Shown piece after piece: positions 3,057 through 63,600 of a stretch of 64,000 nucleotides of DNA. The stretch is from the NCBI GenBank assembly GCA_964434195.1, contig CAYSUI010000001.1, positions 79,833 through 143,832 on the forward strand, written 5' to 3'. Each line of letters opens with the position of its first letter. The first letter of the stretch is position 1. The position numbers and the translations under genes were made by a program. The DNA is from an uncultured Candidatus Saccharibacteria bacterium. GTDB taxonomy: Bacteria > Patescibacteriota > Doudnabacteria > UBA920. Under the pieces are notes generated by a model that saw only the letters and a list, made by a program, of their open reading frames with translations, made no database searches and was not told the DNA's origin.

Positions 3057-4136
3057 TTGGGCATGGAAATGGATATTTACAGACATATATTATATAGAGT
3101 AAATGAGTGGCGAGGAGCAGTTTTGGAAAAACTCATCTCTAAATTCGGAAACGAGCTATCGGTTTTGAAGGCTGATAAAAAAGCTTTAGTAGATTTTGGA
3201 TTAAGTGAGTTACTGGCTATTAGAATATCGGATGCTTTATCTAAATTTGAACCTGAGACTGAGCAAAACTTACTTAATAATCAGGGAATAAAAATTTTAT
3301 CTCCAAGCAATCCCAACTTCCCAACCCTACTGAGACAAGTAGATGATTCACCTGGGATACTCTATTACCGTGGAGATATCTCTATTTTGAGCAAGAGGTG
3401 TTTATCCGTAGTTGGCTCAAGAAGAGTGAGTGGTTATGGGCAAAGTGCTATGCAGAAAATATTTCCTCAGGTTGTCAAAAGTGAAATTGTTACTGTATCT
3501 GGCCTAGCTTATGGTGTAGATGGATTAATCGCAAAAATAGCTGTTGAAAACAAATTTCCAACAGTAGCTGTACTCGGAGGAGGTATAGACAAAAATAGCA
3601 TTTATCCTAAAACTCATGTATTACTTTCGGAAAGGATAATAGAAAATTGTGGATGCTTAGTTTCTGAATACCCACCTGGTACTCCCCCGCTCCCCCATCA
3701 TTTCGTAGCCAGAAATAGAATAATAGCCGGACTAAGCGAAGCTACCTTAGTAGTTGAAGCAGCCCAGAAAAGTGGCTCTCTAATTACAACAGATTTTGCT
3801 TTAAGTAACGGGAGAGATGTTCTTGCTATACCGAGCCCAATTACTAATGAAAATTCCGAAGGCAGTAACAAACTCATAAAGGATGGTGCGCGTGTGGTGA
3901 CATGTGCTCAAGATATACTTGAGATATATGGTATAGTAGAATCACAAGAAAATTCGCATGTACTTAACAAAATAGAAAGCGAATTGTTTGAAATAATCTC
4001 TAATCAACCCACAGAAGTGGACACCTTAATAGAACAATCTGGTTATAACTTTTCGGAAGTGCTTACTACAATAACTAATTTGGAGTTAATAAAATTAATT
4101 AAAAAACTACCAACTGGCGAATATATAAAAGTATGA
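3057..4136 (+). CDS. dprA: DNA processing protein DprA (Smf)
   Basis: Rossmann-like DprA core (SVVGSRRVSGYG...GLAYGVDGLIAKIA...LIT). Track start is TTG. An ATG at 3063 is an alternative start. Confidence 0.75.
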   Translation: MGMEMDIYRHILYRVNEWRGAVLEKLISKFGNELSVLKADKKALVDFGLSELLAIRISDALSKFEPETEQNLLNNQGIKILSPSNPNFPTLLRQVDDSPGILYYRGDISILSKRCLSVVGSRRVSGYGQSAMQKIFPQVVKSEIVTVSGLAYGVDGLIAKIAVENKFPTVAVLGGGIDKNSIYPKTHVLLSERIIENCGCLVSEYPPGTPPLPHHFVARNRIIAGLSEATLVVEAAQKSGSLITTDFALSNGRDVLAIPSPITNENSEGSNKLIKDGARVVTCAQDILEIYGIVESQENSHVLNKIESELFEIISNQPTEVDTLIEQSGYNFSEVLTTITNLELIKLIKKLPTGEYIKV

Positions 4137-5305
4137 ACGCTAAAAAAATAATACCGATTATTATCGGGATACTCTTTGCACTTGCAATTGCATTTGGCCT
4201 GATTCAAAGAAATAATAGTCCAGAACTTGAAAGCTTAAAGGCTTCACCGCAGCTTACAAGCCAGACAACCAATGGATCGTTTAACGATATTTTCCATACT
4301 GCGGAGAGTTTAAAAAATCAACAAGAGCAGGGAGTTCTCGCCACTACGTTTATTGCGGGTGGCGATATTAGTTTGTCTAGAAATATTGCTTATGTTATAG
4401 ACCAGAAAAAAGATCCATTAATTCCATTTTCTGGTGTAGCCAACCTATTATCATCAACTGATTTTAATTTCGCCAACCTGGAAACTCCATTTTCTAATTC
4501 TGATTTTTATACCCCTAAAAATACGCTAGTATTTAATGCACCGAAAAAAAATATTGAGGGGTTGGTGAAATACAATTTCAAAATAGTTAATCTTGCGAAT
4601 AATCATGCATTTGATCAGGGATTAATTGGTTTAAAGACAACGAGAGATTGGTTGGATAAAAATAATATTGCCCATATAGGAACCGGGGAAACTCTTACGG
4701 AAGCTAACACACCAAAAGTAGTCACGAGCAATGGAATAAGGATATTATTTATGGGATTTTCTTATTCTTCTATTAATGACGGAGGTAAAGCAAGAAATAA
4801 CTATGTAGCTCGTATGGAAGATTTTGTTGAGGATGTAAAATCTGGCAGTAATCCGGTGAGTTTCTGGAAAAAAGAGTTGGGAGCAGACTATGCGGTAGTA
4901 ACCATGCACGGTGGGATTGAATATACCAGACAACCAGATAAACTACAGACTGAGTTTGCAAGAAGCGCTATTGATGCCGGTGCGGATATGGTTATAGGCG
5001 CTCACCCACACTGGGTTCAAACAATAGAGAAATACAATGGAAGATATATATTTTATTCACTGGGAAATTTTATATTTGATCAAAATTGGAGCAAGGAAAC
5101 CTCTGAGGGGTTACTTTTAAAAATCAGCTTGAATAAAAAGCCTGTCTCAGAATTACAAGGCAACCCGGTTAATGCCCAACTCAAAGAAGTAGAACTGATA
5201 CCAATAATAATAGAGAACAACTCAACACCTAGACCAGCGAATGAGAAAGAGAGAATTGAAATATTAAAAAAAATAAAAATGGATACAAATAAACTGTATC
5301 CTTAA
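4133..5305 (+). CDS. CapA-family (poly-gamma-glutamate synthesis-like) metallophosphoesterase, membrane-anchored
   Basis: N-terminal transmembrane (TM) helix. Calcineurin-like phosphoesterase motifs (GGDISL, NLANNH, MHGGIEY, GAHPHWVQ) typical of the CapA/PgsA family. Confidence 0.7.
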   Translation: MNAKKIIPIIIGILFALAIAFGLIQRNNSPELESLKASPQLTSQTTNGSFNDIFHTAESLKNQQEQGVLATTFIAGGDISLSRNIAYVIDQKKDPLIPFSGVANLLSSTDFNFANLETPFSNSDFYTPKNTLVFNAPKKNIEGLVKYNFKIVNLANNHAFDQGLIGLKTTRDWLDKNNIAHIGTGETLTEANTPKVVTSNGIRILFMGFSYSSINDGGKARNNYVARMEDFVEDVKSGSNPVSFWKKELGADYAVVTMHGGIEYTRQPDKLQTEFARSAIDAGADMVIGAHPHWVQTIEKYNGRYIFYSLGNFIFDQNWSKETSEGLLLKISLNKKPVSELQGNPVNAQLKEVELIPIIIENNSTPRPANEKERIEILKKIKMDTNKLYP

Positions 5306-7993: not shown

Positions 7994-8006
7994 TCGGATG
8001 TTTTTT
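7981..8006. terminator. bidirectional terminator between convergent topA and NDH-2 gene
   Basis: Hairpin catccg-cgtaat-cggatg (7983-8000) followed by TTTTTT. Overlaps the stops of both genes. Confidence 0.5.
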
Positions 8007-9259: not shown

Positions 9260-9817
9260 TTACTTTAAACCTGATTCTGTTAAAGAGTGCCTACCTCCAG
9301 TGACACTTCCTGTTTTGTCGCTTACACAGAAAGTGATCGTATATTTATCGGTAGCTGAAGAGGTATAGACATAATCGTTCCAAGTAAAACTACCATTTGC
9401 CTCGCTACAACGCGAACCTGCTGGTAGAGAACCGTCATCTGCTGGCTTTGGAGAAGGCTGAAATTGAGCCAAATAGACTGTACCAGAGGCTACAGAGGTT
9501 AGACCTATACCACCGTTTGGAGAAACTCCATTACTTGTCCCGCAAGTTGTTGCCGTACCACTATATAAAGAAAGGCTACCACTTAATACAATGGGACCGG
9601 TTTGTGGAAAACCATTACACGTATTTTGATATAACGACAAAGCACTAGCTAGTTGAGTTACATCGCTTAATCTCTTTGCATTCCTGGCTTTAGTTCTCGA
9701 ATTCGAAAGCGCAACCAATACGACAGATGCGAGCAGGCCAATAATGGCAATAACTACTAAGAGTTCTATAAGTGTAAAACCTTTTGTGGAAAAATTTTGT
9801 TTCTTTAGACCTTGCAT
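9260..9817 (-). CDS. type IV pilin-like protein (prepilin with class III signal peptide)
   Basis: N-terminus KGFTLIELLVVIAIIGLLASVV is the canonical prepilin cleavage/methylation motif (G|FTLIE). Confidence 0.85.
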   Translation of the reverse strand: MQGLKKQNFSTKGFTLIELLVVIAIIGLLASVVLVALSNSRTKARNAKRLSDVTQLASALSLYQNTCNGFPQTGPIVLSGSLSLYSGTATTCGTSNGVSPNGGIGLTSVASGTVYLAQFQPSPKPADDGSLPAGSRCSEANGSFTWNDYVYTSSATDKYTITFCVSDKTGSVTGGRHSLTESGLK

Positions 9818-14087: not shown

Positions 14088-14876
14088 CTAGACCCTTGAA
14101 GGTCGAAGTTTTTGTACAGGTTTTTTCTTGGACGACCCGATACTTTTTTTGGGTTTCTTGGGAGTAACTAAGCTTTTTTGGCAATCAAATGACTGCACCC
14201 AAACATTTGGAATCCTTTGAAAAGTTTCTTTTATTAGGGCAATATTTTCTGCTTCGTTGTTATTTATGACAAGCAAAATACCATGTGTTGCGTAGTAACC
14301 TTTCATGTACCTTTCCATGCTGGAGTATGAGGGCGAAGCAGTAAGGACTAGACCTTTCAGGTCGGAATTGGAAGTTAACTTAACTTCAACGATTACCGGA
14401 CCGACGAAACCGTACCTTACAAAAAAATCAGTCTTTTTTCCGTCTAGTAACTCTGGCTCACGCATAACCTCAACCTGGAAACCACGCTTAAGTAAAATAT
14501 TCTCTGCTTGTGCTTTTAGTGTTTTTTGAACTAATTTTTCATACTCTTGCCGTTTCGCTGCATACACTTTTTCTCCCAGAATCAGGTCATAAGCACCTTC
14601 TCCTTCAATCCACCGCCTTAGGTCTGTCTCTAAAGCATCCTGCAAATGACGGAACAAGTCGTCAGAGGTAACAATCTTTTTATCGTCGTACTCCCGTGCA
14701 TTATTGTATCTTTTTACCGCTTCGGATATATTTCGAGGCTTCCCAAGATACGCTAAATAAGAACGACGCAGGTTTACCATACGCCCCGCGAGCCAATTTG
14801 CACCTTGTCGGTCTTTCATCTCGGCTATCTTAGCTTCTAATAAGCCCAAGGGCGTATATGAGCGTTTTTCCTTCAA
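14088..14876 (-). CDS. hypothetical protein occupying the position of the missing recombinase catalytic domain
   Basis: 262-aa ORF with a basic K-rich C-terminal tail. A possible PD-(D/E)xK-like segment (DFFVRYGFVGPVIVEVK) is speculative. Confidence 0.4.
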   Translation of the reverse strand: MKEKRSYTPLGLLEAKIAEMKDRQGANWLAGRMVNLRRSYLAYLGKPRNISEAVKRYNNAREYDDKKIVTSDDLFRHLQDALETDLRRWIEGEGAYDLILGEKVYAAKRQEYEKLVQKTLKAQAENILLKRGFQVEVMREPELLDGKKTDFFVRYGFVGPVIVEVKLTSNSDLKGLVLTASPSYSSMERYMKGYYATHGILLVINNNEAENIALIKETFQRIPNVWVQSFDCQKSLVTPKKPKKSIGSSKKKPVQKLRPSRV

Positions 14877-16285
14877 GTTATCGAAATATGAATAAACAAT
14901 CTCCCAAAGGTAGGAAGCGTATGCTTGAGGGCGTTCTTTCGAGCGTTGCAGAGTTTTTCTCTTTGCAAAGTGGAGAAAAAGTAAAAACAGGCATGAAGCA
15001 AAAACTTAAAGAAGGCCTTTGGCCGACTGGAGCATCGTACGGATACAAGAACGTGCGAGAAAAATTATCTACTGGTAAAGTGCGTTCTTGGGTGGAAATA
15101 AATTGGGAAGAAGCTAAATGGGTAATTCGAGCTTTTGAATTATTCGCTACGGGTAATTATTCCACCATATCTCTCGCCCAAATACTTCGCCAGGAAGGGT
15201 TTCCAGTAAGAAAATATAAGAGAGGGAATGACAAATTACATGCAAGCTTTATCGAAAGGCTTTTACGCAATAAGTTTTTTATAGGCATTATCGAATGGGA
15301 CGGCCTTGTTAATCCCAATGGTAAACATGAGCTCTTTTTAGACCGTCAACTTTTCGACAAAGTACAAAGTATCTTAGATATGCGTCTAGGTGGAGGTAGC
15401 AGAAAGCGTAAGCATTTTTCTATACTTAAAGGCCCTGCTTTCTGCCAAGAGTGCAATAGCAGGATTACAATGGATGTTAAAGAAACTACTACTCAAACTA
15501 TACGATACCTTCGTTGTTTGAAGTCACAAAATAGCGAGCGTGTTCAGTGCTCCCAGGAGTACCCCCATGAACTAGAGATTCTAAAGCAAGTAGACGAATT
15601 ACTTAGGCAAATAAAACTCAAAGATACCTTTGTTATAAAATTACGGAAACGTATTAGAAAAACGTTTGCCGATGAGCAGCAGGTTTATGAAAGAGCGCGA
15701 ATGGATATTTTGAATATAACAGAAGAAATAAAACGCAAGAAAAAGAATCTTGTTCTACAAATGATAAGCAAGGACAACGCTTCAACAGAAGACTTGGACA
15801 TATTTGCGAGCGTCCAAGACGAGCTTAATGTTGAAGAGAAGTACCTTAATGAACAACTGGAGAAAATTGAAAATAAAATTACCAGCGTGGTTAGAACGAT
15901 TCAGATTGCATTAGCTATCGCCACAGACTGCCATTATGCGTACAAAAAGGCTGAACCAGAATTGAAGGCTATGCTTATACAGACATTATTCAAAAAGATT
16001 TATATTCGGGACAAACAAATAACCCAAGTAGTTCTAAATGAACCCTTGGATTATTTGTGTCTAAAGAGGTTACAGAAAAACCCCGTATTCGATTTAACTT
16101 CAAATGGTGGGTCGAGTGGGGATCGAACCCACGACAAACGGCTTAAAAGGCCGCTGGCGCTATATACCTGGGATCCGGTAAACCGGCCCCAGGACGTGAA
16201 CAACGGCAAAGCCGCTGTTCACTCCCTAAAGGGGTATTCGCAGCGGCTTAAAATTTGTATCCAAAATTTTTACTTGGTGGGCTGA
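14858..16285 (+). pseudogene. large serine recombinase lacking the N-terminal catalytic (resolvase) domain
   Basis: Begins inside the alphaE region (VAEFFSLQSGEKVKTGMKQ) followed by the recombinase-domain motif GLWPTGASYGYKN, a Cys zinc ribbon (CQEC...C...C) and a coiled-coil. No catalytic Ser domain upstream. The 3' end reads through a tRNA-Lys fragment, so the true stop is unclear. Confidence 0.55.
16106..16156. repeat. 51-nt partial copy of the tRNA-Lys 3' half (att-like direct repeat)
   Basis: tggtgggtcgagtggggatcgaacccacgacaaacggcttaaaaggccgctg matches the 3' 51 nt of the tRNA-Lys gene at 16423-16473 with about 3 mismatches. Lies 267 bp distal to the intact tRNA. Confidence 0.75.
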
Positions 16286-16386: not shown

Positions 16387-16429
16387 CAATAATAAAACCT
16401 CCTGCACCGGAGGTTTTATTATTGGTGGG
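16387..16429. repeat. 43-nt direct repeat, right copy; overlaps the 3' end of tRNA-Lys
   Basis: Identical to 11588-11630. Its last 7 nt (tggtggg) are the CCA and acceptor end of tRNA-Lys on the minus strand. Confidence 0.8.
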
Positions 16430-16498
16430 TTCGGTGGGGATCGAACCCACGACAAACGGCTTAAAAGGCCGCTGCTCTACCGACTGAGCTACGAACCC
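16423..16498 (-). tRNA. tRNA-Lys (anticodon TTT), CCA encoded
   Basis: The reverse complement of 16423-16498 folds as a cloverleaf. Acceptor GGGTTCG/CGAACCC, anticodon stem GCGGC/GCCGT, anticodon loop CTTTTAA, T-loop TTCGATC, 3' ACCA. Confidence 0.9.
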
Positions 16499-32699: not shown

Positions 32700-34400
32700 A
32701 TGGTACAAATTTTATTAGCCTTACTCGCCGGCATACTTACTGTATCTGCCCCTTGCATCCTACTCCCCTTACCTATCCTATTTGGTGCTTCGGTAGGCCA
32801 AACGAGTAAAACTCGTCCAATTTTCATTACTCTGGGTTTTATAACCACTTTTTCAATACTTGCACTTGGTCTGCAGTATGCAGTTTCAAAGTTTGGAATT
32901 AATCCGAATTACATCCGTAATACAGCGGCTTTTGTCTTACTTGTAATGTCAGGGTTTATGATTTGGCCAAAACCATTTGAGATTTTAATGTCTCATATGA
33001 GCGGATTAATCACTAAGGCATCTGGTATTAGCAAGAGTGCAGGTAGTGGAAATGCGGGCGGTTTTATTACTGGTGTTGTTATTGGGGCTGTTTGGGCACC
33101 ATGCGCAGGACCTATCCTTGCTTCTATCATCACGCTGATTATTTTTCAACAAGAAACTTTTCGAGCAGGAGTACTGCTAATTGCGTATGCTATAGGAGCA
33201 GGCATTCCTATGCTACTAATTGCTTATGGGGGACAGACTTTAACCACTAGGATAAAATCGATAGCTAAATACTCCAACAAAATCCAACAAGCTTTCGGGG
33301 TAATACTTATTTTTGTAGCAACTAGTATATTTTTTCAATACGATACTTATATCCAAGCCTGGTTATTGGAAAGAGTACCTTTCTTAGGGGCAGGGTTAGA
33401 AAAAAGTATCTTAGGTGAGAAAAACTTAAGTGAAGTAAAAAACAAGGACAATTCGAATACCACACTGGAAGAAGAGTATAAGGAAAGACAATCACAAACA
33501 GTCATGAAGACCGAATTAGATGTGTATGGGAAAGCACCAGAGATTAGAGGCATCACTAACTGGATAAATTCAAACCCGCTTACTTTAGCCGAACTAAAAG
33601 GAAAAGTTGTACTGGTAGACTTTTGGACCTACTCGTGCATTAACTGTATTCGCACATTACCGTATGTGACAAATTGGTACAATAAATATAAAGATCAAGG
33701 CTTTGTTGTTATCGGAATTCACGCGCCGGAATTTGAGTTTGAGAAAATAAATAGCAACGTAGAGAAGGCTGTGAAGCGATACAATATTCACTATCCTGTA
33801 GCACAAGATAATGGTTTTGCCACATGGAGAGCATATAGTAACCAATTCTGGCCTGCTCACTATTTAATAGACAAGAACGGTGATGTTGTTTATACCCATT
33901 TTGGTGAAGGAAAATATGAGATAACAGAAAATAATATTAGATATTTACTGGGTTTAGAAGTCGGAACAGAGACCACGGACGTATCTAAACTTAACCAGAT
34001 AAAATCTCCAGAGATGTATTTTGGTTTAAACAGACTTGAGAATTTGTCATCGGGACAACGAGCAAGTGCGGATGCGTATGACTATATAATACCGAATAGG
34101 CTTGATGTAAATAATTTTGCTCTTTCAGGAAAGTGGAAGTTTGACCAAGATAAAGCTATTTTCCTCGGAAGTCAGGGTAAAATTAAACTACATTTTAATT
34201 CCGCCAAAGTGCACATGGTAGCAGAAAGTTCGAAAGCACAAACTATTTTAGTTAAAGTAGATGACAAGCCTCCAGTGCTAATTAACATTGCTGGTTCTGA
34301 CCTATATACACTCTTCGACTCAGAAGAGTATAGAGAACACGTAATGGAAATAACCATTCCCGAAGCCGGCTTTGAAGCATTCACATTTACGTTTGGATAG
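32700..34400 (+). CDS. CcdA/DsbD-like transmembrane thiol:disulfide transporter fused to a redoxin (TlpA/ResA-like) domain
   Basis: N-terminal polytopic domain with the two conserved membrane Cys (SAPCILLP and WAPCAGPILA). Then a thioredoxin-like domain with CxxC (FWTYSCINCIRTLP), followed by a C-terminal beta domain. Confidence 0.8.
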   Translation: MVQILLALLAGILTVSAPCILLPLPILFGASVGQTSKTRPIFITLGFITTFSILALGLQYAVSKFGINPNYIRNTAAFVLLVMSGFMIWPKPFEILMSHMSGLITKASGISKSAGSGNAGGFITGVVIGAVWAPCAGPILASIITLIIFQQETFRAGVLLIAYAIGAGIPMLLIAYGGQTLTTRIKSIAKYSNKIQQAFGVILIFVATSIFFQYDTYIQAWLLERVPFLGAGLEKSILGEKNLSEVKNKDNSNTTLEEEYKERQSQTVMKTELDVYGKAPEIRGITNWINSNPLTLAELKGKVVLVDFWTYSCINCIRTLPYVTNWYNKYKDQGFVVIGIHAPEFEFEKINSNVEKAVKRYNIHYPVAQDNGFATWRAYSNQFWPAHYLIDKNGDVVYTHFGEGKYEITENNIRYLLGLEVGTETTDVSKLNQIKSPEMYFGLNRLENLSSGQRASADAYDYIIPNRLDVNNFALSGKWKFDQDKAIFLGSQGKIKLHFNSAKVHMVAESSKAQTILVKVDDKPPVLINIAGSDLYTLFDSEEYREHVMEITIPEAGFEAFTFTFG

Positions 34401-43741: not shown

Positions 43742-43828
43742 GGGCCAGTGGTGAAATTGGCATACACGTACGCTTCAGGTGCGTATGAGCGCAAGCTCGT
43801 GAGGGTTCAAGTCCCTCTTGGCCCACCA
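43742..43828 (+). tRNA. tRNA-Leu (anticodon CAG), long variable arm, CCA encoded
   Basis: Acceptor GGGCCAG/TTGGCCC, anticodon stem TACGC/GCGTA with loop TTCAGGT, long variable arm, T-loop TTCAAGT, 3' ACCA. Confidence 0.85.
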
Positions 43829-43920
43829 ACAAAAATAACGAGAAGTATTCTCGTTGTTTTTGTTTTCAGAAAAAAAAATACCCCAGTTAATTTACCAGGG
43901 CTGTCTTTCGACAAAAATAA

Positions 43921-44003
43921 TCTCGGTGAGGGGATTTGAACCCCTATGGATTTCTCCACACGCTCCTAAGGCGTGCGCGTCTACCTAGTTTCGCCACACC
44001 GAG
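43921..44003 (-). tRNA. tRNA-Leu (anticodon TAG), long variable arm
   Basis: Reverse complement: acceptor CTCGGTG/CACCGAG, anticodon stem CACGC/GCGTG with loop CTTAGGA, long variable arm, T-loop TTCAAAT. No encoded CCA. Confidence 0.85.
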
Positions 44004-44006
44004 AAA

Positions 44007-44080
44007 CGCTTCAGGAGGGACTCGAACCCACGACCCTCGGTTTAGGAAACCGATGCTCTATCCTTCTGAGCTACTGAAGC
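44007..44080 (-). tRNA. tRNA-Arg (anticodon CCT)
   Basis: Reverse complement: acceptor GCTTCAG/CTGAAGC, anticodon stem TCGGT/ACCGA with loop TTCCTAA, T-loop TTCGAGT. 3 nt from the previous tRNA. Confidence 0.8.
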
Positions 44081-44082
44081 AA

Positions 44083-44155
44083 TGCTCCCCACGGGACTTG
44101 AACCCGCAACCAGCCGATTATGAGTCGGATGCTCTAACCATTGAGCTAAGGGAGC
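44083..44155 (-). tRNA. tRNA-Met (anticodon CAT, elongator or Ile2-type)
   Basis: Reverse complement: acceptor GCTCCCT/GGGGAGC, anticodon loop CTCATAA, T-loop TTCAAGT. Lacks the three consecutive G-C pairs of an initiator anticodon stem. Confidence 0.8.
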
Positions 44156-44178
44156 TGAAATGAATTCCTCCTAATAAA

Positions 44179-44250
44179 TATCCCGGGAGGGACTTGAACC
44201 CCCGACCACCTGCTTGTAACGCAGACGCTCTACCACTGAGCTACCGGGAC
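44179..44250 (-). tRNA. tRNA-Val (anticodon TAC)
   Basis: Reverse complement: acceptor GTCCCGG/CCGGGAT, D-arm GCTC..GAGC, anticodon stem TCTGC/GCAGG with loop GTTACAA, T-loop TTCAAGT. Confidence 0.75.
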
Positions 44251-46405: not shown

Positions 46406-46448
46406 GGAAACGATAAATAAAACCCCCTCAGTCAGAGGGGGTTTTATT

Positions 46449-48944
46449 TTACTTGATTGGGTCAGCGAGTGTGTAAGACCCTACTGATCCTTGGAGAACT
46501 TTTAGCTTTCGCTTATTGGTTCTTAAATATTCGGTGTAGCTACGTAGGGTTGTGAAAGGGTGTAAACCGTCTGGCTGAACCAAATATATTGCGGGAGCAT
46601 CCTTAAACTTAACTATATCCCCACCCTTAACACCTTCGGGCAATGAAACTTGAACCCCGAGAATACTCCCCTCTTCTTCTAAAACGGACTGTGCGGAATC
46701 GGAAAAGATAGTAAACTTTTCTGGATTATCTTTTATTACCCTTAGCCGTTTATTTGTTTTGTTTAAATAATTTTTGTAAGAAGTGTAAGTATCGAATGGG
46801 TACAAACCTTCTGGTTTTACTAAGTAAACAGTCGGTTTGTTATTGAATTTTATAAGATCACCTTCTGCTACCGCATAAGGAAGCACGACTCCGTTCGTTA
46901 CCACCTGACCAAGAGTACTAAATGACTCATCATGGTAAATTGCTAAATTTCCCGAAGCGTCTTTACTAGTAACCCTAAAGTGGTAAGTTGTGTTCCTCTT
47001 GAGATTCTTTAGAGTGAACCTATGGTTAAGAGTTAGGGCACTTTGAATTCCGGTTTTTTTGCCATAATTTGTACTTGTACCATATTCAACTTGACCATCC
47101 GCTGGCTCGTTTGTGTCCCAGGATATAACAGCACTACTCCTGGTTACTTCGGTTATCTGCAGGTTTGTTATTTGCGGTGGTGTAGTATCTACAGGTGATG
47201 GCGGAGGAGGAGTAGGTGTTGGAGTTGGTGTTGGAGTAGGTGTTGGAGTTGGTGTTGGAGTTGGGGTTGGGGTTGGAGTTGGGGTTGGGGTTGGAGTTGG
47301 GGTTGGGGTTGGAGTTGGAGTGGGTGTTGAACCTTGGGCAGTAAGTATTGCGTCTACATTAGCTCCTAAATCTTTTGCGTCAGTACCTGCATTTTTATAA
47401 GTGGAAGTACTGAGCAAGCGGTAATCGCCACCAATTCCATTATTATAATTCACAAATCCAATTGCACTGAAACTAGCTGGAGAGAAATTTCCTGAAGGAT
47501 ACACAGCGGAATTGCTTCCAACAATTGCATTCTTCTGAAAAACATAACCCGGCATATAATTGTTCAAAGTATCAGTACCAGATCCACGATTATCTCCTTT
47601 GAATCCATATGGACCTTCTGCAAGGATATTATTAGTGAATGTAAAATTTGTGGTCTGATCTCCATAAACTGAGCCTGCATTCCCGCTATTAAAAACGGTG
47701 TTGTGGTCCAAAGTTAACCCATTGACCCCACTAATCTGAACAAATACTCCATTTCCACCATACTTTCCACCGTCGATATCCTCAAAAACATTGTTTACAA
47801 TCGCAACATTATTTAATCTTACAGCTGTTTTTCCACCATAAGCTTCTATGCCTGCGAGATTAATACCTGCACCACTCCGTTTAACAATATTATTCGAAAA
47901 AGTAATATCACCGCTATGACAAAGATCACACCCACCATCTTGATTGGTCGATTTTAAAATCATAGCATAACCACTCTGTGCATCTGCCCAATTATTCTCG
48001 AAAATATTTCCATCTATCAGCATCCTTTGGGCGTTTTTAGTTTCGAACAAATTTTTTACGGTCCAATGATAACCTTTATACGAAGGGTCTCCTACTCTCC
48101 AATCAAAAGGTTTTTTGAAATGATTTCTCCTAATCTCAAAATCTGAAGGGACCAATCCGGCTATCGTAGGATCTGCGCCTCCAAAAATTATATTTTCCCC
48201 TGCTCCTTCTAGGTAGTTATTTACGATCTTGAAAGGACCACTACCGTTCCAACCCGCTATTGCCTGTGAATCTGCTCCTATTTCATGACAATCAGAAACA
48301 TATGAATCTATTACAGCTGTACTAGCACTGTTTAAAGCGAAGCATCTTCTAACATTTTGTGTTGGTGATCCATGAACGTAAACTCGATCAAAAATAAGAT
48401 TATGAGGAAGATTACTCACAGAAGTTTCGTCGTTCCCTAATCTAACCAAACCATATTGAGTAAAACCGCCTGCGTTTGCGTCCGCAACTGCACTAGAAGT
48501 TAGACTAATTTCAACGCCGATAAATCGATAGTGGTGAGCGCCAGGACTAGTCGTAATAGCCCCTGCTACGTTTGGAGTAAGGATTTTAGCCATTTGGCTT
48601 GAGCTAGAAGGAGTCACACGAACCCCCTCTGCCCCACTAAAACCCTGAGTGGTAATTACAATCCAGGAATTTCCTGATTTATTAGGTAAATTAAAGTTTC
48701 CAGTGTACGTAGCACCAGGAGCTAGTGAAATAATCGTACCCGGTGCCGCATTATCTATTGCTGCTTGCAGGTCCCCACCGGATGCAAGGTTTATAGTAGG
48801 CCCCGAAGGTGCTGTATATGATGTATTCAGATAAGCCTGGGGTAATGCTGGAGTCACCGCAGCGTAAACAGGTGACTTATTAGGTAGTATTGCAGCAGCT
48901 ACGAGGATTACAAGACCTAAAAGCATAGAAGGGGTTCTTCTCAT
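46449..48944 (-). CDS. secreted surface protein: signal peptide, right-handed beta-helix, (TP)n linker, FN3-like domain, duplicated C-terminal domain
   Basis: Signal peptide MRRTPSMLLGLVILVAAAIL. Parallel beta-helix repeats (NNVFEDIDGG.., NNILAEG..). About 25 TP repeats. FN3-like segment (VEYGTSTNYG...TTYHFRVTSKDASGN). Two repeats of GDhhKFxxxPxhYLVxPxGLxPF. Confidence 0.65.
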   Translation of the reverse strand: MRRTPSMLLGLVILVAAAILPNKSPVYAAVTPALPQAYLNTSYTAPSGPTINLASGGDLQAAIDNAAPGTIISLAPGATYTGNFNLPNKSGNSWIVITTQGFSGAEGVRVTPSSSSQMAKILTPNVAGAITTSPGAHHYRFIGVEISLTSSAVADANAGGFTQYGLVRLGNDETSVSNLPHNLIFDRVYVHGSPTQNVRRCFALNSASTAVIDSYVSDCHEIGADSQAIAGWNGSGPFKIVNNYLEGAGENIIFGGADPTIAGLVPSDFEIRRNHFKKPFDWRVGDPSYKGYHWTVKNLFETKNAQRMLIDGNIFENNWADAQSGYAMILKSTNQDGGCDLCHSGDITFSNNIVKRSGAGINLAGIEAYGGKTAVRLNNVAIVNNVFEDIDGGKYGGNGVFVQISGVNGLTLDHNTVFNSGNAGSVYGDQTTNFTFTNNILAEGPYGFKGDNRGSGTDTLNNYMPGYVFQKNAIVGSNSAVYPSGNFSPASFSAIGFVNYNNGIGGDYRLLSTSTYKNAGTDAKDLGANVDAILTAQGSTPTPTPTPTPTPTPTPTPTPTPTPTPTPTPTPTPTPTPTPPPPSPVDTTPPQITNLQITEVTRSSAVISWDTNEPADGQVEYGTSTNYGKKTGIQSALTLNHRFTLKNLKRNTTYHFRVTSKDASGNLAIYHDESFSTLGQVVTNGVVLPYAVAEGDLIKFNNKPTVYLVKPEGLYPFDTYTSYKNYLNKTNKRLRVIKDNPEKFTIFSDSAQSVLEEEGSILGVQVSLPEGVKGGDIVKFKDAPAIYLVQPDGLHPFTTLRSYTEYLRTNKRKLKVLQGSVGSYTLADPIK
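47211..47335. repeat. 12-nt tandem repeat (ggtgttggagtt)n encoding the Thr-Pro linker
   Basis: About ten near-perfect tandem 12-mers on the plus strand, complementary to ACNCCN codons on the coding strand. Confidence 0.8.
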
Positions 48945-48974
48945 AATGTATTCTATTATTTATCTATATTTTTT

Positions 48975-49604
48975 TTAATCTAAAAGTTTTGCTCTGACTA
49001 CCAATCGATCTTTTGAGCTCCATAGAGGGGTGCAAGTGTAAAGTGTTAAAATTGGTTCCAAAGTAGCAGCTTCTATCTCTAGGGCTTGTGGCGGTACAAC
49101 TTTAGTTTCGTAAACTTCATATTCATAAGTTGTACCTTGCCATTTTAATCTAATTTTATCCCCTGAAACTATTTTATCTAAAAAATAAAAAGTTTCCGGT
49201 CCGCTTGTCTTAAGAAACCTATGAGCAACAATAACCGTATTACCACCTTTTTCAGGTGAGCTGGTCCAAGGTAGGTGCCAAATGCCAAGTTTTAACAAAT
49301 TCTGATTATCCCCTTCGTGAATTTCTCCATCTACACCAATCTTTTCTATAGTAAGCTTGTTTTTCTCGTTTGATATTGAAGGAGTAAATGACATTACCGA
49401 AATATCTCTTCGCTCCTCGCCTCTAAGTAAATTTGGTTTGGCATTTTGATTAACCTGTTTCTTTTCAAAAGATTCTGAATCGGGTCTTACGAATGCATAG
49501 GAGAAGCTGGGGATAAAAGGGCTTAATATAAAATAGGTAGCCAAAATTATAACTATAATAGAAAGATAGTTAATTATCCGCTCAAAAAATTTTTTAGGAA
49601 ACAT
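48975..49604 (-). CDS. sortase-family transpeptidase
   Basis: N-terminal TM anchor. Catalytic His (NTVIVAHRF), TLxTC Cys motif (LTLYTCTP), and conserved Arg (RLVVRAKL). Confidence 0.85.
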   Translation of the reverse strand: MFPKKFFERIINYLSIIVIILATYFILSPFIPSFSYAFVRPDSESFEKKQVNQNAKPNLLRGEERRDISVMSFTPSISNEKNKLTIEKIGVDGEIHEGDNQNLLKLGIWHLPWTSSPEKGGNTVIVAHRFLKTSGPETFYFLDKIVSGDKIRLKWQGTTYEYEVYETKVVPPQALEIEAATLEPILTLYTCTPLWSSKDRLVVRAKLLD

Positions 49605-49606
49605 AA

Positions 49607-52075
49607 TTACACCTCTTTAAGCTTTAGCTTGAGAAATTGCAAGAATAGAACACCTGAGAGTAGTAACACACCCAAAAAGAAACTACCAGAACTCCTACTT
49701 GAAGTAGGTTGCAACTCACCACCTGACCCACCTGTAACTGTTTTATTAAGCCCTATGTCCTTAAAACTGACCACTTCACCGCCGGAGATTGTTAAATTCT
49801 GAGATGCACTACCCCCTGAAGACTCGGTTGATACAGCATAACCAGAGGTTTTTTCCTGTGTTAAATCTAAGGATAAAGAAATGTTTCCAGATACTACTGC
49901 TGTTGAAAAACTACCGGAATTATCTGTTAATACTGGAATAGATACCCCACTTCCGTCCGTTATTCTTAGACTTACCCCGTCTGCACCCAACTCACCATTA
50001 TCTTGTATTCCGTTATTGTCGGTATCATAAAATACCTTTCCTGATACCTGTCCGACAAGCAGTGGAGTAGTACTACCTGATTGAACAGTTATTGTAACAA
50101 CGGCTGTACTAACGGCGTTTTTAGTATCTGCAATCGTGTAATTAAAAGTATCTACTCCTGTATACCCATTTGAAGGTGTATAAACACATGAACCATCTGC
50201 ACTACATATTACAGCACCGTGCGCTGTGGTGGTTGCAGAAAGAGGCGAGGTTACCAGGAAAGTATCCCCTTCTGGATCTGAATCATTGGTTTTTACTTGT
50301 ATAGAAACAGGGGTATTTATAGGTGTGGTAGCTGAATCGTTTACAGCTATTACAGAATTTGTAGGATTTACTGCGGTTCCAGCTACACTTAGATTACCGC
50401 TAAATTCTGAAGTATTACCATTGCCGTCCGTTGCTGTAGCGGTTAGGATAGTCCCATTTGAGATTGTGGCTGCCAATGATGACAGCGCTATAGAATATGA
50501 AAATTTATTCGTTGTGTCTGTACCTTGAGAAAGTGAATTGATTTGCGTCGGTCCATAGCTACCAGTAGTAGCATCTGTATCCGCACTTGATCCTTCTGTC
50601 AGTGTGGTTAAGTATGTCTTGCCTTCTCCAAATCCACTTGGATCAGGATCTGAAATAAATAGCTCTATAATGCTCCCTGGTCTTGCAAAACCAGCCAAAA
50701 TAAGATTACTACCGCTTATTTGTGCAGTACTAAGCACTGGGAAATTAAATTTATCGTTTCCTCCAGAGTCTGCGTCATTAGAGTCATTAATCGTAACCCC
50801 TGTTAAATCAGGATCTATATCTATTGCTAAACTTGTTTGATTATTTGGTGAGTTATCGTTCTGGTAGAAGGAATTTTTAGAAATTGTATTTTTCTTACCG
50901 GTAACCATCACTCCTTTTCCATTGTTATTAAAAACTAAATTCTTTGTGAATAAGGAATTAGAACCACCAGCCAGTACAGCACCCGTACCATTTGCCGAAA
51001 GAGTATTGTTCTCTATGGTCATAGCTCCTGTACCTGGAGTAGTTATTTCAATACCAAAATCAGCATACTCATTATTAGCATCGTTACCACTCGTAACATT
51101 TTGACCAGTAATTATATTTTGTCTGATTATTGAACCCGCTACGTTTGTACTATCTGTAAAAGCAACGCCTGGACCGGCAAGGTTTTGCGCTCGATTATTA
51201 TTTCTTATCTCATTCTTCTCTATAATAGTTCCACTGGTATCACCTACTCTAACAAATACACCGGTCATATCATGAAAGCCAATGAGGTTGTTTCTAATAA
51301 CTGCGTTCTTAGCATTTTCAATATATACACCGTTTGCCTGACCCCGCGAACCCACACCCGGGTCTACAAAACCCTCAGCACTTGAGCCGAGAAAATTTTG
51401 CTCTACCAGAAGACCCGAACAACATAGAGTACCTATCTCCCCGCTTTCATTGGGTTTTCCGAAACCGTATATAGCGAGCCCTTTTATAGATATATTATTT
51501 GCGGCGGCCTCAATGCCATAAGTTTGTGAATTTGGTTGTGCAAAAGATGCTTTTATTTCTATTTCAGGTTTATTAACTTTGGAAAAAGAAACAGAATCAA
51601 CACCGACAGTTCCCCCACTTCCGTCTTGCCCAGTATTAGTATCTCCACCAAATGATGTTTGAGAAGTACCGTCTACTATAGTGCCTGTGCAAGTTATAGC
51701 GGGTAAAGCACTTTTTGGGGTAATTCGGTAATATACCCCTCCAGAATATGTAACTTTTCCGTTTGTGCCAGATGACGCTGCGGTTTCTGAATTTGGAATA
51801 TTAAATATGATGGAATTGGTTCCGGCTGGACATGCGGAATTTAAATCTAAAATAGCCTGCCTTAAGCTTCCTGCTCCTGTGTCATTTGTATTCGTTACAA
51901 CAAAATTCTGTGCATCTACCTTACTAAAGGGGAGGGAGTAAAAACTAAATAAAGCGGTTAGCAAAAAAACTACTTGTAGTGATGAAATAAGTCTCTTACC
52001 AGAAAGAAACTTTTTGTTTTTTTGTTCTTCAGGTAAGTAATATGTAATGGATTCAATTTTTGGAGTTTTGTGCAT
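49607..52075 (-). CDS. large surface protein with beta-helix repeats, Ig/cadherin-like region and C-terminal sorting-signal-like tail (probable sortase substrate)
   Basis: N-terminal signal/TM. NosD/pectate-lyase-like repeats. C-terminus ...GGSGGELQPTSSRSSGSFFLGVLLLSGVLFLQFLKLKLKEV (motif, then hydrophobic segment, then basic tail). Stop lies 2 nt upstream of the sortase gene. Confidence 0.6.
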   Translation of the reverse strand: MHKTPKIESITYYLPEEQKNKKFLSGKRLISSLQVVFLLTALFSFYSLPFSKVDAQNFVVTNTNDTGAGSLRQAILDLNSACPAGTNSIIFNIPNSETAASSGTNGKVTYSGGVYYRITPKSALPAITCTGTIVDGTSQTSFGGDTNTGQDGSGGTVGVDSVSFSKVNKPEIEIKASFAQPNSQTYGIEAAANNISIKGLAIYGFGKPNESGEIGTLCCSGLLVEQNFLGSSAEGFVDPGVGSRGQANGVYIENAKNAVIRNNLIGFHDMTGVFVRVGDTSGTIIEKNEIRNNNRAQNLAGPGVAFTDSTNVAGSIIRQNIITGQNVTSGNDANNEYADFGIEITTPGTGAMTIENNTLSANGTGAVLAGGSNSLFTKNLVFNNNGKGVMVTGKKNTISKNSFYQNDNSPNNQTSLAIDIDPDLTGVTINDSNDADSGGNDKFNFPVLSTAQISGSNLILAGFARPGSIIELFISDPDPSGFGEGKTYLTTLTEGSSADTDATTGSYGPTQINSLSQGTDTTNKFSYSIALSSLAATISNGTILTATATDGNGNTSEFSGNLSVAGTAVNPTNSVIAVNDSATTPINTPVSIQVKTNDSDPEGDTFLVTSPLSATTTAHGAVICSADGSCVYTPSNGYTGVDTFNYTIADTKNAVSTAVVTITVQSGSTTPLLVGQVSGKVFYDTDNNGIQDNGELGADGVSLRITDGSGVSIPVLTDNSGSFSTAVVSGNISLSLDLTQEKTSGYAVSTESSGGSASQNLTISGGEVVSFKDIGLNKTVTGGSGGELQPTSSRSSGSFFLGVLLLSGVLFLQFLKLKLKEV

Positions 52076-52146
52076 TTGTTTCTTTCTGTAATTGTAGCAT
52101 GCTACTTGGAAGTTTAGAAAATAAAAAAACCAACATGTGTTGGAAT

Positions 52147-61306: not shown

Positions 61307-62935
61307 TTATTTTAGTCTACTATCGCCGTACTCTAGAGGGTTAAGAACCCCTACTTGGAAGTCGTAACTGTTGGCGGGGACTACTAGCCTGTCTTCTCCT
61401 CCGTTATTTATGAATACCTCATAAGAAGGGACTGGTATAAGACCTAATTCATGAACGAAATATACTGTATTACCACTTTTTACCCAACTACCCCAAGGGT
61501 GCCTGCTGTAGCTTGAACTTACGTTGTAGTTGGACGAAATTAACCCGGTATATCCAACGTCCTTAACATTTTCCCACTTGAAGCCTAGACCTAGAAAAGC
61601 TGATGCACTAGTGAAGCCAGATTTGAGGTTTTTATAAACTATATAGACAGTACCATTTTCTTTAATAAGGGTACCGTTTTTATATATGCTGGAACCATAT
61701 ACCGTACCATAGCCACTACCATAACCACAGTTAGAAATTGGGAGAGTGAATTGGTTTACCCCACGCCTTCCTAATGAATCTGTAACCTGAATTCCGAAAC
61801 TCTGATTGCTACCACAATACGGAGTACCGGTTATTAGCCCGTTATAATTCAGAGTTAATCCACTAGGTAAACTACCAGAGGAAAGTGCGTAGGTGTATGG
61901 ATAACTACCCCCTGCGGCGTTTAATTGAAAAGAATAATATTGGCCCGAATTGGCACTTGGAAGAGTTGTCTGAGTAAAATATGGACTACCCGAGCCATAG
62001 TAATAGCCTGAACCATAGCCAACTACATTAACGTATAGGTACCCACAATTTTGGTTCGTTGCGCAAACTGTAATGGTAGTACTTCCGTTGTTTATTCCGT
62101 TAATTGTAAGACTACTACCTGATACGTAAGCGGAGGCAACATTAGAATTTGAGTTATTTGAAATATAGTACCCTGTACCGTAATTGGTTTGGTTGTTATA
62201 AATAGTTAAATTCCTACTCTGCCCTACTGCAACAGTGGGGCTACTTTCACTAAATGTAATCTGACTTCCATAATAATTACCAGAACCCACTGTTACATAC
62301 AAGATACCGCAAGACGATGAATTACTTGAACAAACGGTAATCTGACTATTACCAGTGCTCTGTCCAAAAACATACAAGTTGCTTCCTGTAATAGAAGCGG
62401 TTACTACACTTGAATTAGAATTGTTGGAAATGTAGTAACTGTTATTGTAACCACCATATATGGAGATGGTTTGAGACTGAGAATAGTTAAGTGTGATATT
62501 ACTCTGACTGAAAGTTATCTGTCCGCCGTAGCAATTGTTGTTGTAATAATTACAACCGCCACAATTGTTGTTATAGCAACTATTATTTGGGTACACAGAC
62601 TGAATACTGGACTGTTGTCCGTTTACGACAACATAGTATTCTACTTGACCACCACCTGTACCAAGCCCGATCATTGTGGAAAAATAACCACCCTGGTCAG
62701 TCATACCAAAATTGGTTATGGTGGTCCAAAGAATAGTACCACTCTGCCTTTGGTTTAGTGTTATTTGGGCGTAGGGGTCTGCACCCGATATAGACAACCG
62801 GATAGTACCACCGTCTTGCTGAGTAATATTTAATTGAGGTTGACCCGCAAAGGCTACGGGTGTAAATGATAGTAGAACTAAACTAATCAATACCCCACTT
62901 ACGATCCGCCCCCATTTTTGAAGTGTATTTGGCAT
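61307..62935 (-). CDS. secreted protein with three tandem ~90-aa repeats (Ig-like, Cys-pair-containing)
   Basis: Signal peptide MPNTLQKWGRIVSGVLISLVLLSFTPVAFA. A repeat of the form ...YYISNNSNS.V.SA..SGS.L...G...G...ITVC..N..CG.LYV.V occurs three times. G/S/Y/N-rich. Confidence 0.55.
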   Translation of the reverse strand: MPNTLQKWGRIVSGVLISLVLLSFTPVAFAGQPQLNITQQDGGTIRLSISGADPYAQITLNQRQSGTILWTTITNFGMTDQGGYFSTMIGLGTGGGQVEYYVVVNGQQSSIQSVYPNNSCYNNNCGGCNYYNNNCYGGQITFSQSNITLNYSQSQTISIYGGYNNSYYISNNSNSSVVTASITGSNLYVFGQSTGNSQITVCSSNSSSCGILYVTVGSGNYYGSQITFSESSPTVAVGQSRNLTIYNNQTNYGTGYYISNNSNSNVASAYVSGSSLTINGINNGSTTITVCATNQNCGYLYVNVVGYGSGYYYGSGSPYFTQTTLPSANSGQYYSFQLNAAGGSYPYTYALSSGSLPSGLTLNYNGLITGTPYCGSNQSFGIQVTDSLGRRGVNQFTLPISNCGYGSGYGTVYGSSIYKNGTLIKENGTVYIVYKNLKSGFTSASAFLGLGFKWENVKDVGYTGLISSNYNVSSSYSRHPWGSWVKSGNTVYFVHELGLIPVPSYEVFINNGGEDRLVVPANSYDFQVGVLNPLEYGDSRLK

Positions 62936-62985: not shown

Positions 62986-63600
62986 TTACCAGTTCTTAGC
63001 CCCTTCGGTCCAAAAACCTACACCTGTGTATCCCCCAGCACAACCACTTGGATCTCCAGGGTCAGCTACGCACCAAGCCGTGTCCACCAAAAGACCGTTA
63101 TAAAAAGACATATTCTCCGGATTAATATAAGATCCCACCTTAAAATCTCGACCATCAGAAATATACCAATATCCCCTCTCTGTCTCTAACGACTCTTGGC
63201 CGGGCTGGACTTGTCTAGCGTATACATCTCTTAGCTCACTTGCCATAAAAGGGAGTAGCGCCGAGCGAATATCAGCTGCCACAACCTGACCATTGTAGGG
63301 ATTTAAAATATCTCTATCTTTTACTGTGGTAGTAACGCAATCCCAGCAACCCCATTCACCATTGGTGTCATATGGACCAATAAATGTTGCTGGGTAGTAA
63401 TTGTTATGTGCATAAAATAATTCTATAGCAGAATTCAACTGCCTAAGATTACTTGCACGCAACGCATCACGGGAAGTGGACCTTGCTTTTTGTAGAGCTA
63501 CTAATACCAAGGAAGCCAGTAGCGCAATAATAGCTATAACTACCAGTAACTCAATGAGCGTAAAACCAGATTTACTTTTTTTTATATATCCACTACTCAT
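62986..63600 (-). CDS. type IV pilin-like protein (prepilin)
   Basis: KSGFTLIELLVVIAIIALLASLVLVAL prepilin N-terminus. 204 aa. Confidence 0.85.
   Translation of the reverse strand: MSSGYIKKSKSGFTLIELLVVIAIIALLASLVLVALQKARSTSRDALRASNLRQLNSAIELFYAHNNYYPATFIGPYDTNGEWGCWDCVTTTVKDRDILNPYNGQVVAADIRSALLPFMASELRDVYARQVQPGQESLETERGYWYISDGRDFKVGSYINPENMSFYNGLLVDTAWCVADPGDPSGCAGGYTGVGFWTEGAKNW

Follow-up and report, generated by a model that had tools for sequence, protein, structure and literature searches.

A candidate LQPTS sorting signal in a probable two-gene sortase–substrate cassette of a Patescibacteria bacterium

Can a sortase act on a surface protein whose C-terminus holds neither LPXTG nor LAXTG? 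The question is raised by two adjoining genes in a 64,000-nucleotide (nt) stretch of DNA from a bacterium of the candidate phyla radiation (CPR; Patescibacteria), contig CAYSUI010000001.1, positions 79,833 to 143,832 (hereafter the window), one coding for an 822-amino-acid (aa) beta-helix protein and the other for a 209-aa sortase. Sortases are widespread in CPR bacteria (PMC6744442; PMC4736985; PMC7143001), where over half of the genomes have them (PMC6744442). Our literature search found no paper that defines the recognition motifs of CPR sortases, and none with LQXTG, LQPTS or similar strings. Comparison of related loci, set out below, makes it likely that the two genes form a sortase–substrate cassette in which the pentapeptide LQPTS directs wall anchoring of the 822-aa protein.

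The sortase and its candidate substrate

Three open reading frames (ORFs) of 822, 209, and 831 aa follow one another head to tail on the minus strand, as had been read in an original prediction made from the letters of the window, and two terminator-like hairpins (52130-52143 and 46423-46441; consensus scan only) flank the set. The ATG of the sortase gene lies 2 nt past the TAA stop codon of the substrate gene, in line with the predicted spacing, and a ribosome-binding site for the sortase sits inside the 3' end of the substrate gene, so that translation of the two is probably coupled.

We examined the 209-aa protein against family models, homologs, and structures. It matched PF04203 at 93.1 bits (cutoff 26.6) and TIGR01076 at 62.5 bits (cutoff 39.35), and H128, C191 (within TLYTC), and R200 were invariant in an alignment of 32 homologs, which bears out the His, TLxTC, and Arg residues named beforehand. 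In its AlphaFold2 (AF2) model (mean predicted local distance difference test score, pLDDT, 81), an N-terminal membrane helix (residues 4-38) is followed by a disordered linker (39-82) and a catalytic beta-barrel (83-207). By its Pfam score, its His/Cys/Arg triad, and its membrane-anchored beta-barrel fold, the protein belongs to the sortase superfamily.

Its class is less easily named. Against the NCBIfam class models, the sortase scored 75 bits for class C (NF033745; cutoff 160), the best of the class scores, 62.9 bits for the LPxTATN-specific class D model (NF058671; cutoff 140), 61.2 bits for class E (NF033747; cutoff 160), 54.3 bits for class D (NF033746; cutoff 165), and 37 bits for class GN (TIGR03784; cutoff 158). 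Two traits of class C, the DP[FWY] lid motif and a C-terminal membrane helix, were absent from the sequence scan and the AF2 model, and neither neighboring large protein carries a YPKN-type pilin motif. When the model was compared with the PDB using Foldseek, classes C, D, E, and A ranked alike (E 1e-12 to 1e-10; target-normalized TM-score ~0.55-0.7), with class C structures as the top matches and no class assignable. By sequence, class C enzymes came second to Clostridium perfringens SrtD (4d70), the closest solved structure, which matched at E 1.2e-13 with 35% identity across the catalytic domain. Because it falls below every NCBIfam class cutoff and Foldseek was unable to separate the classes, the enzyme is a true sortase of a CPR-specific clade outside the curated classes. 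All of its named homologs came from Patescibacteria/CPR (Nomurabacteria, Dojkabacteria, Woesebacteria, Saccharibacteria, Roizmanbacteria, Doudnabacteria, Kerfeldbacteria, and others), which supports the CPR-type cell originally proposed; PGAP labels several of them "class E sortase." Several contigs on which typical CPR sortases stand among CPR neighbor genes are deposited as "uncultured Gammaproteobacteria bacterium" (e.g., our loci L006, L009, L028, and L033); these look like pipeline mislabels.

The 822-aa protein gave Pfam matches, above or near cutoffs, to Beta_helix, NosD, Big_9, Cadherin-like, and SdrD_B, in agreement with the predicted NosD/beta-helix and Ig-like regions, whereas a phmmer search of PDB sequences returned no match. 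Its AF2 model (mean pLDDT 82) consists of a helix (residues 19-46), a right-handed beta-helix (57-420), beta-sandwiches (447-778), a disordered stretch (782-795), and a C-terminal helix (797-821). With Foldseek, the beta-helix head matched alginate lyase, phage tailspikes, and "DHS dehydratase," while the stalk matched the B-domains of SdrD and UafA, plus SiiE. The pentapeptide LQPTS, with Gln at P3 and Ser at P1' where it departs from LPXTG, falls in the low-confidence disordered linker that joins the last beta-sandwich to the transmembrane helix (peptide GGELQPTSSRSS). After 6-7 residues comes the hydrophobic segment (S)FFLGVLLLSGVLFLQF and then, at the extreme C-terminus, the positively charged LKLKLKEV, which is the architecture of a sorting signal; the C-terminus quoted in the original prediction, including its tripartite layout and its want of LPXTG or LAXTG, was exact. 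By analogy, this arrangement of head, stalk, linker, and signal resembles that of wall-anchored adhesins. The head may be an adhesin or a glycan-active enzyme, and the domain architecture is consistent with a role in attachment to a host.

The pair and its tail in related genomes

Relatives were retrieved with the sortase, not the tail, as query, after which their gene contexts were read (L004 is a GTDB representative); the result is thus not biased toward tail conservation. At six further syntenic loci, with sortases 56-91% identical to that of the window, the same substrate gene abuts the sortase, the junction varying between an overlap of 8 nt and a gap of 4 nt, so that the sortase adjoins the substrate stop codon in 7/7 orthologous loci, the window included. 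The order PGM, TrpRS, hypothetical protein, ~825-aa beta-helix-Big_9 protein, sortase, variable gene, and RNase J is kept in L004, L084, L085, and L087; on the short contigs L089 and L091 only the substrate-sortase pair is visible. The slot after the sortase is empty in L085; elsewhere it holds a NUDIX gene (L084), an S8 peptidase (L087), or a different 651-aa protein (L004). Of the three-gene operon first proposed, the co-directional run of genes stands, but the conserved unit is made up of two genes only.

A more distant locus, L088, departs from this layout in that the substrate gene, whose product carries LAKTA, lies 1.5 kb upstream of the sortase, and a 194-aa protein ending ELKKTDAR-IFVPIA... 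is encoded directly upstream of it. Two sorted proteins therefore precede this sortase, one of 896 aa (LAKTA) and one of 194 aa (LKKTD). Immediately upstream of its substrate gene is a nucleotidyltransferase (MNT)/HepT-like toxin-antitoxin pair (1040-1907 of the locus).

The check that had been suggested, an alignment of the C-termini of sortase-adjacent homologs, was run on eight tails from ~7 lineages (alignment A3; Table 1). The pentapeptides LQPTS (twice), LQNTA, LQNAS, LQATG, LQKAS, LQPAT, and LAKTA occupied the same columns, giving LQx[TA][SAGT] in seven tails and LAKTA in L088. Leu was found in 8/8 and Gln in 7/8, while position 4 was Thr or Ala and position 5 was Ser, Ala, Gly, or Thr, so that both held only small or hydroxyl residues; in one lineage, the canonical-type L-x-x-T-G string LQATG stood in the LQPTS columns. 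The linker before the motif varied in composition and in length (5-17 residues), whereas the distance from motif to helix was constant. Within the helix a Gln was invariant, as was a Lys at its cytoplasmic end. The LQPTS candidate of the original prediction thus lines up column for column with the pentapeptides of its orthologs, at a fixed distance from the helix. That prediction had also named two observations that would speak against it, namely homologs without a conserved motif before the hydrophobic tail and a tail kept without an adjacent sortase. Instead, a pentapeptide motif was conserved across the eight tails, and at each orthologous locus with readable gene context a sortase accompanied the tail, abutting the substrate gene in seven loci and lying 1.5 kb away in L088.

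Table 1. Identity of the sortase to that of the window, and C-terminal tail of the substrate, at the eight loci of alignment A3
Locus	Sortase identity	Tail
Window	reference	GGELQPTSSRSSGSFFLGVLLLSGVLFLQFLKLK...
L004	91%	GGELQPTSSRSSSSFFLGV...
L091	63%	APELQNTASKSAPHFFLGL...
L084	64%	VAELQNASSNTAPRFFLGL...
L089	60%	PPQLQATGSNQIPNFFLAL...
L085	56%	QPELQKASAQTQKGFFLGL...
L087	56%	TTLQPATAGIASNIIWGI...
L088	45%	PRELAKTASEFADKYFLSV...

Wider searches added no tails to this set. A scan of metagenome contigs with close sortases gave no relative above 46% full-length identity, and hence no extra LQ-type tail. The A3 tail profile had no match in a 5.8-billion-protein set, from which its own source proteins were likewise unrecovered, and a phmmer search with the C-terminal 160 aa against 1.84 billion representatives was swamped by multi-repeat SdrD_B proteins, recovering one known ortholog (P0123).

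The sortases paired with LQ-type tails also differ from those paired with LAxTG. In the beta3/beta4 loop (WHLPWTSSPEKGGN in the window), the LQ-clade enzymes read WHLPWT, as opposed to W(R/H)RPxT in LAxTG-paired CPR sortases, and just after the catalytic His they read HRFLK, as opposed to HRFLY. These differences may reflect specificity or shared ancestry only.

To place LQPTS among the signals of CPR sortases at large, ~160 loci around such sortases were examined. Large sortase-adjacent ORFs often ended in ELTPTG, ELAPTG, LAATG, LADTG, LAQTG, LATTG, LVNTG, LVDTG, LPDTG, or LPQTG, with a hydrophobic helix and a basic tail after the motif, and the signals were mostly LAxTG, LVxTG, or LPxTG; LAxTG was found only beside more distant CPR relatives and not in the LQ clade. 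We counted such signals in ORFs of at least 150 aa around 141 CPR sortase genes. They were present in 40 of 170 ORFs within 400 nt of the sortase gene (24%), compared to 12 of 374 ORFs more than 2 kb away (3%; odds ratio 9.3), with a p-value of 1e-12 that is optimistic because near-duplicate loci were among those counted. Many CPR sortases had no adjacent substrate. Since sortase-adjacent CPR ORFs are enriched in LxxTG-type signals, LQPTS would appear to be a CPR-wide [E/D]-L-x-x-T-G signal in its local form, P3 being Gln and P1 and P1' being relaxed. The "unusual recognition motif" of the original prediction holds insofar as LPXTG and LAXTG are lacking, but the signal looks like a variant of L-x-x-T-G and not like a separate kind.

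A second group of ORFs directly upstream of a sortase ended in LPAAG (L013, L017, L042, and L062), LPQSG/LPKSG (L044 and L060), or LVNAG/LVSAG/LANAG (L040, L046, and L075). These L-x-x-[A/S]-G proteins are very large (~1000-1950 aa) and carry, after the membrane helix, a conserved and unusually long cytoplasmic tail of 25-30 aa (e.g., RLQTPLGEVEVPLDSL); in most of the loci the sortase sits near position 8000. They would represent a further non-canonical type of signal, one that lacks Thr at P1, and the LPAAG, LVNAG, and LPQSG groups suggest that Ala or Ser at P1 recurs in the CPR sortase family.

The proposed pathway and its alternatives

Taken together, these comparisons suggest the following pathway. 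The 822-aa protein would be exported by Sec via its N-terminal signal, and the helix and basic tail at its C-terminus would keep it in the membrane for a time. The membrane-anchored sortase would then recognize E-L-Q-P-T-S in the flexible linker, and Cys191 would attack after position 4 (Thr791) to form an acyl-enzyme. Transfer to an amine acceptor, most likely a peptidoglycan precursor, would leave the beta-helix head outside the wall on an Ig/CnaB-like stalk. We infer that the signal of the clade, with Gln at P3, admits either Thr or Ala at P1 and any of Ser, Ala, Gly, and Thr at P1'. Independent lineages share the motif of the tail, its spacing, and the adjoining sortase, a recurrence that goes beyond chance.

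Several observations weigh against this pathway. The motif is drawn from only eight tails of ~7 lineages, in three of which the P1 Thr is replaced by Ala and in only one of which P1' is Gly. P1 and P1' are the most constrained positions in characterized sortase signals, and they are the least conserved here. Conservation is stronger in the helix (FFLGLILLSGVLFLQYWK) than in the motif, a pattern that would suit a permanent membrane anchor as well, and no sorting-signal model (TIGR01167, PF00746) matched the 81-aa tail at E up to 1 for Pfam and up to 10 for NCBIfam. Peptidoglycan genes were not seen within the 64 kb of the window, which is also our view of the sortases and substrates of this genome; the peptidoglycan acceptor is taken from general knowledge of CPR genomes.

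The main rival is, accordingly, a tail that stays uncleaved as a permanent membrane anchor, with the sortase serving other proteins, its adjacency reflecting co-regulation of envelope genes, and "LQ" being a structural juxtamembrane feature. The conservation of the helix over the pentapeptide, its invariant Gln and its Lys at the cytoplasmic end, the loose P1 and P1', the missing match to any sorting-signal hidden Markov model, and the many CPR sortases without an adjacent substrate all fit such an anchor. It explains less well why, in all seven loci, the sortase gene directly adjoins the stop codon of the substrate while the gene on its other side changes, or why the pentapeptide keeps its distance to the helix despite a variable upstream linker. 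Nor does it account for a pentapeptide that shares its columns with LQATG and LAKTA and its relative position with ELTPTG and LAQTG of other CPR pairs, or for the ~9-fold enrichment of such signals in sortase-adjacent ORFs, and we consider a permanent anchor unlikely. A further alternative grants the cleavage but has the protein passed by the sortase to water, or to an acceptor other than peptidoglycan (S-layer, glycan, or lipid amine), so that the enzyme would serve as a release or maturation protease or as an anchor to another polymer. Here, nothing positive was found in favor of another acceptor, and wall-anchoring systems have exactly this combination of a sortase anchored at its N-terminus and a tripartite signal. 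The relaxed P1/P1', unlike that of wall-anchoring sortases, and the lack of peptidoglycan genes in the window would agree with it, and CPR envelopes are atypical, but a window of only 64 kb makes the absence of mur genes say little. This alternative strikes us as quite improbable.

Polymerization of a class C-like pilus, in which copies of the 822-aa protein would be joined to each other or to the 831-aa protein as a fiber and not to the wall, seems very improbable indeed. Class C does give the best NCBIfam score and the top Foldseek matches, and classes C and D give the top PDB sequence matches. However, that score is far under its cutoff, Foldseek fails to separate classes C, D, E, and A, and the enzyme has no lid and no C-terminal membrane helix, residues 39-82 being a disordered linker. 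In addition, neither large protein has a YPKN-type motif, and the 831-aa protein lacks a sorting signal and is absent or replaced at related loci. Pilus assembly was rejected on the missing lid and pilin motif. The recently described CPR Pam pilus system (doi 10.64898/2026.03.03.709456) was judged unrelated, as it works by donor-strand exchange and has no sortase.

LQPTS-directed anchoring by the adjoining sortase, the explanation we prefer, was also compared with characterized systems. Class E of Actinobacteria (Streptomyces coelicolor SrtE1; Thermobifida fusca SrtE, PDB 9iok) shares the N-terminal membrane anchor, the lack of a lid, and a non-Pro P3 in the signal; its fold matched at E ~2e-11, and many CPR relatives adjoin LAxTG proteins. 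According to published work, P3 is read in class E by the beta3/beta4 loop, in which a conserved Tyr contacts the P3 Ala. Unlike LAXTG substrates, however, the window protein has Gln and not Ala at P3 and no Gly at P1', and the PDB sequence matches were weaker for T. fusca SrtE (E 7e-7) and for 5go6, which we take to be a Streptomyces class E sortase (E 4e-4), than for class C/D entries (1e-13). Class D, represented by C. perfringens SrtD (4d70; LPXTA/LPQTGS signals), gave the best PDB sequence match, and its signals tolerate a non-Gly residue (Ala) at P1', but its NCBIfam scores were below cutoffs and the window has Gln, not Pro, at P3. The class GN ("marine") sortases of Proteobacteria act on a single dedicated, adjacent substrate of the LP[QK]T[AS]T type, with Ala or Ser at P1'. 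The dedicated sortase beside one cognate substrate is thus shared, whereas the score (37 bits versus 158), the phylum, the type of substrate, and the Gln at P3 are not.

On the substrate side, the nearest likeness is to the staphylococcal microbial surface components recognizing adhesive matrix molecules (MSCRAMMs; SdrD and UafA, with SrtA and LPXTG), which have the same succession of head, SdrD_B/CnaB-type stalk, flexible linker, pentapeptide, helix, and basic tail. They differ in that the window head is a right-handed beta-helix and not a DEv-IgG A domain, and in that the window signal goes unmatched by TIGR01167/PF00746. Ala at P1 is known from the LPXAG variants SasD and SasF of Staphylococcus aureus. 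By analogy, the system would work like a housekeeping or dedicated sortase system, and it falls outside classes C, D, E, and GN on the traits compared. It is a known kind of system with a variant signal and not a new mechanism.

The third gene, the rest of the window, and CPR surfaces

The features of the locus are collected in Table 2. The third gene is co-transcribed with the pair but not conserved. Its 831-aa product has, as predicted, a (TP)n stretch ((TP)20 at residues 540-579), an fn3 domain, and duplicated domains, together with a signal peptide, and no C-terminal hydrophobic sorting signal was found in it; it does not appear to be a sortase substrate. The duplication lies in the C-terminal 143 aa (window 46449-46880) as two ~68-aa tandem repeats (38% identity, E 1e-19) with the pattern GD(L/I)(I/V)KF...P(T/A)(V/I)YLV.P.GL.PF...SY..YL, which has no Pfam match. 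These repeats might bind the wall or glycans, as a module that keeps the unsorted protein at the surface. The beta-helix once ascribed to this protein found no support, since Pfam gave none in the N-terminal ~500 aa and hhalign of this region against the beta-helix profile of the 822-aa protein gave a probability of 0.4%; as these are tests of sequence only, they leave the claim without support but do not refute it. Searched with phmmer, the 831-aa protein had mostly low-complexity (TP)n or fn3 matches among PDB sequences.

Table 2. Positions in the window of the genes and sequence features of the locus
Feature	Positions	Strand	Basis or content
Substrate gene, 822 aa	49607..52075	-	ORF list, Pfam, AF2: signal/anchor helix, beta-helix, beta-sandwich, Big_9/cadherin-like Ig, SdrD_B (CnaB-like) stalk, linker, sorting signal
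Sortase gene, 209 aa	48975..49604	-	Pfam PF04203, AF2, Foldseek
Third gene, 831 aa	46449..48944	-	Signal peptide, ~480-aa N-terminal region, (TP)20, fn3, two C-terminal repeats, no sorting signal
Candidate pentapeptide LQPTS, residues 788-792, preceded by Glu	49700..49714	-	Position in sequence, tail alignment
C-terminal hydrophobic helix SFFLGVLLLSGVLFLQF, ~residues 798-814	49634..49684	-	Conserved among orthologs, including the invariant Gln
Basic cytoplasmic tail LKLKLKEV, residues 815-822	49610..49633	-	Lys817 (A3 tail query position 114) invariant in alignment A3
AAGAGG, ribosome-binding site for the sortase, within the last codons of the substrate gene	49612..49617	-	Read from sequence
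Terminator-like hairpin upstream of the substrate gene, at the end of the preceding 235-aa gene	52130..52143	-	Consensus scan only
Bidirectional terminator-like hairpin between the third gene and the convergent RNase J gene	46423..46441	.	Consensus scan only

Elsewhere, the window holds the housekeeping genes of a small genome and type IV pilin-like genes. The pilin-like ORFs, with an N-terminal methylation motif (type IV pilin class), are two among 62986-63600 (-), 61307-62935 (-), and 9260-9817 (-), and one of them adjoins a protein of 542 aa that carries Ig domains (He_PIG and Big_2); they are candidates for a second surface or attachment system. Two genes are envelope-related, at 32700-34400 (+) and 4133-5305 (+): one encodes a membrane domain of the DsbD type joined to redoxin/thioredoxin domains, which points to thiol-disulfide chemistry outside the cytoplasm, and the other a PGA_cap (CapA-like) protein. 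A Recombinase-domain ORF (14858-16285, +) lies beside a full tRNA gene (16426-16498) and a weak, short tRNA-like match (16108-16169, -; 33 bits), a layout that suggests integration of a mobile element into a tRNA gene. Between a peptide-binding protein gene and the RNase J gene are five tRNA genes (43742-44250; one plus, four minus).

CPR biology depends on cell-surface contact with hosts. Because the standard models miss this tail, surface proteins anchored in this way are invisible to routine annotation. With a defined signal, [E/D]-L-x-x-[T/A]-[G/S/A/T] ahead of a helix and a basic tail, the wall-anchored proteome of CPR bacteria could be predicted, and adhesins or glycan-degrading proteins could be picked out as candidates for testing. 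Orthogonal protein-ligation tools are sought among sortases whose preferences at P3, P1, and P1' are altered, and this system is a lead in that search. More tentatively, the LQ clade might have a truly distinct specificity, reading E-L-Q at P5-P3 and needing neither Thr at P1 nor Gly at P1', though on present comparisons we would not expect it. If it does, then together with the LPAAG, LVNAG, and LPQSG signals it would mean that CPR sortases have explored motif space outside classes A-F and form a new sortase class; the CPR surface proteome would then come within reach, perhaps together with an orthogonal ligation enzyme.

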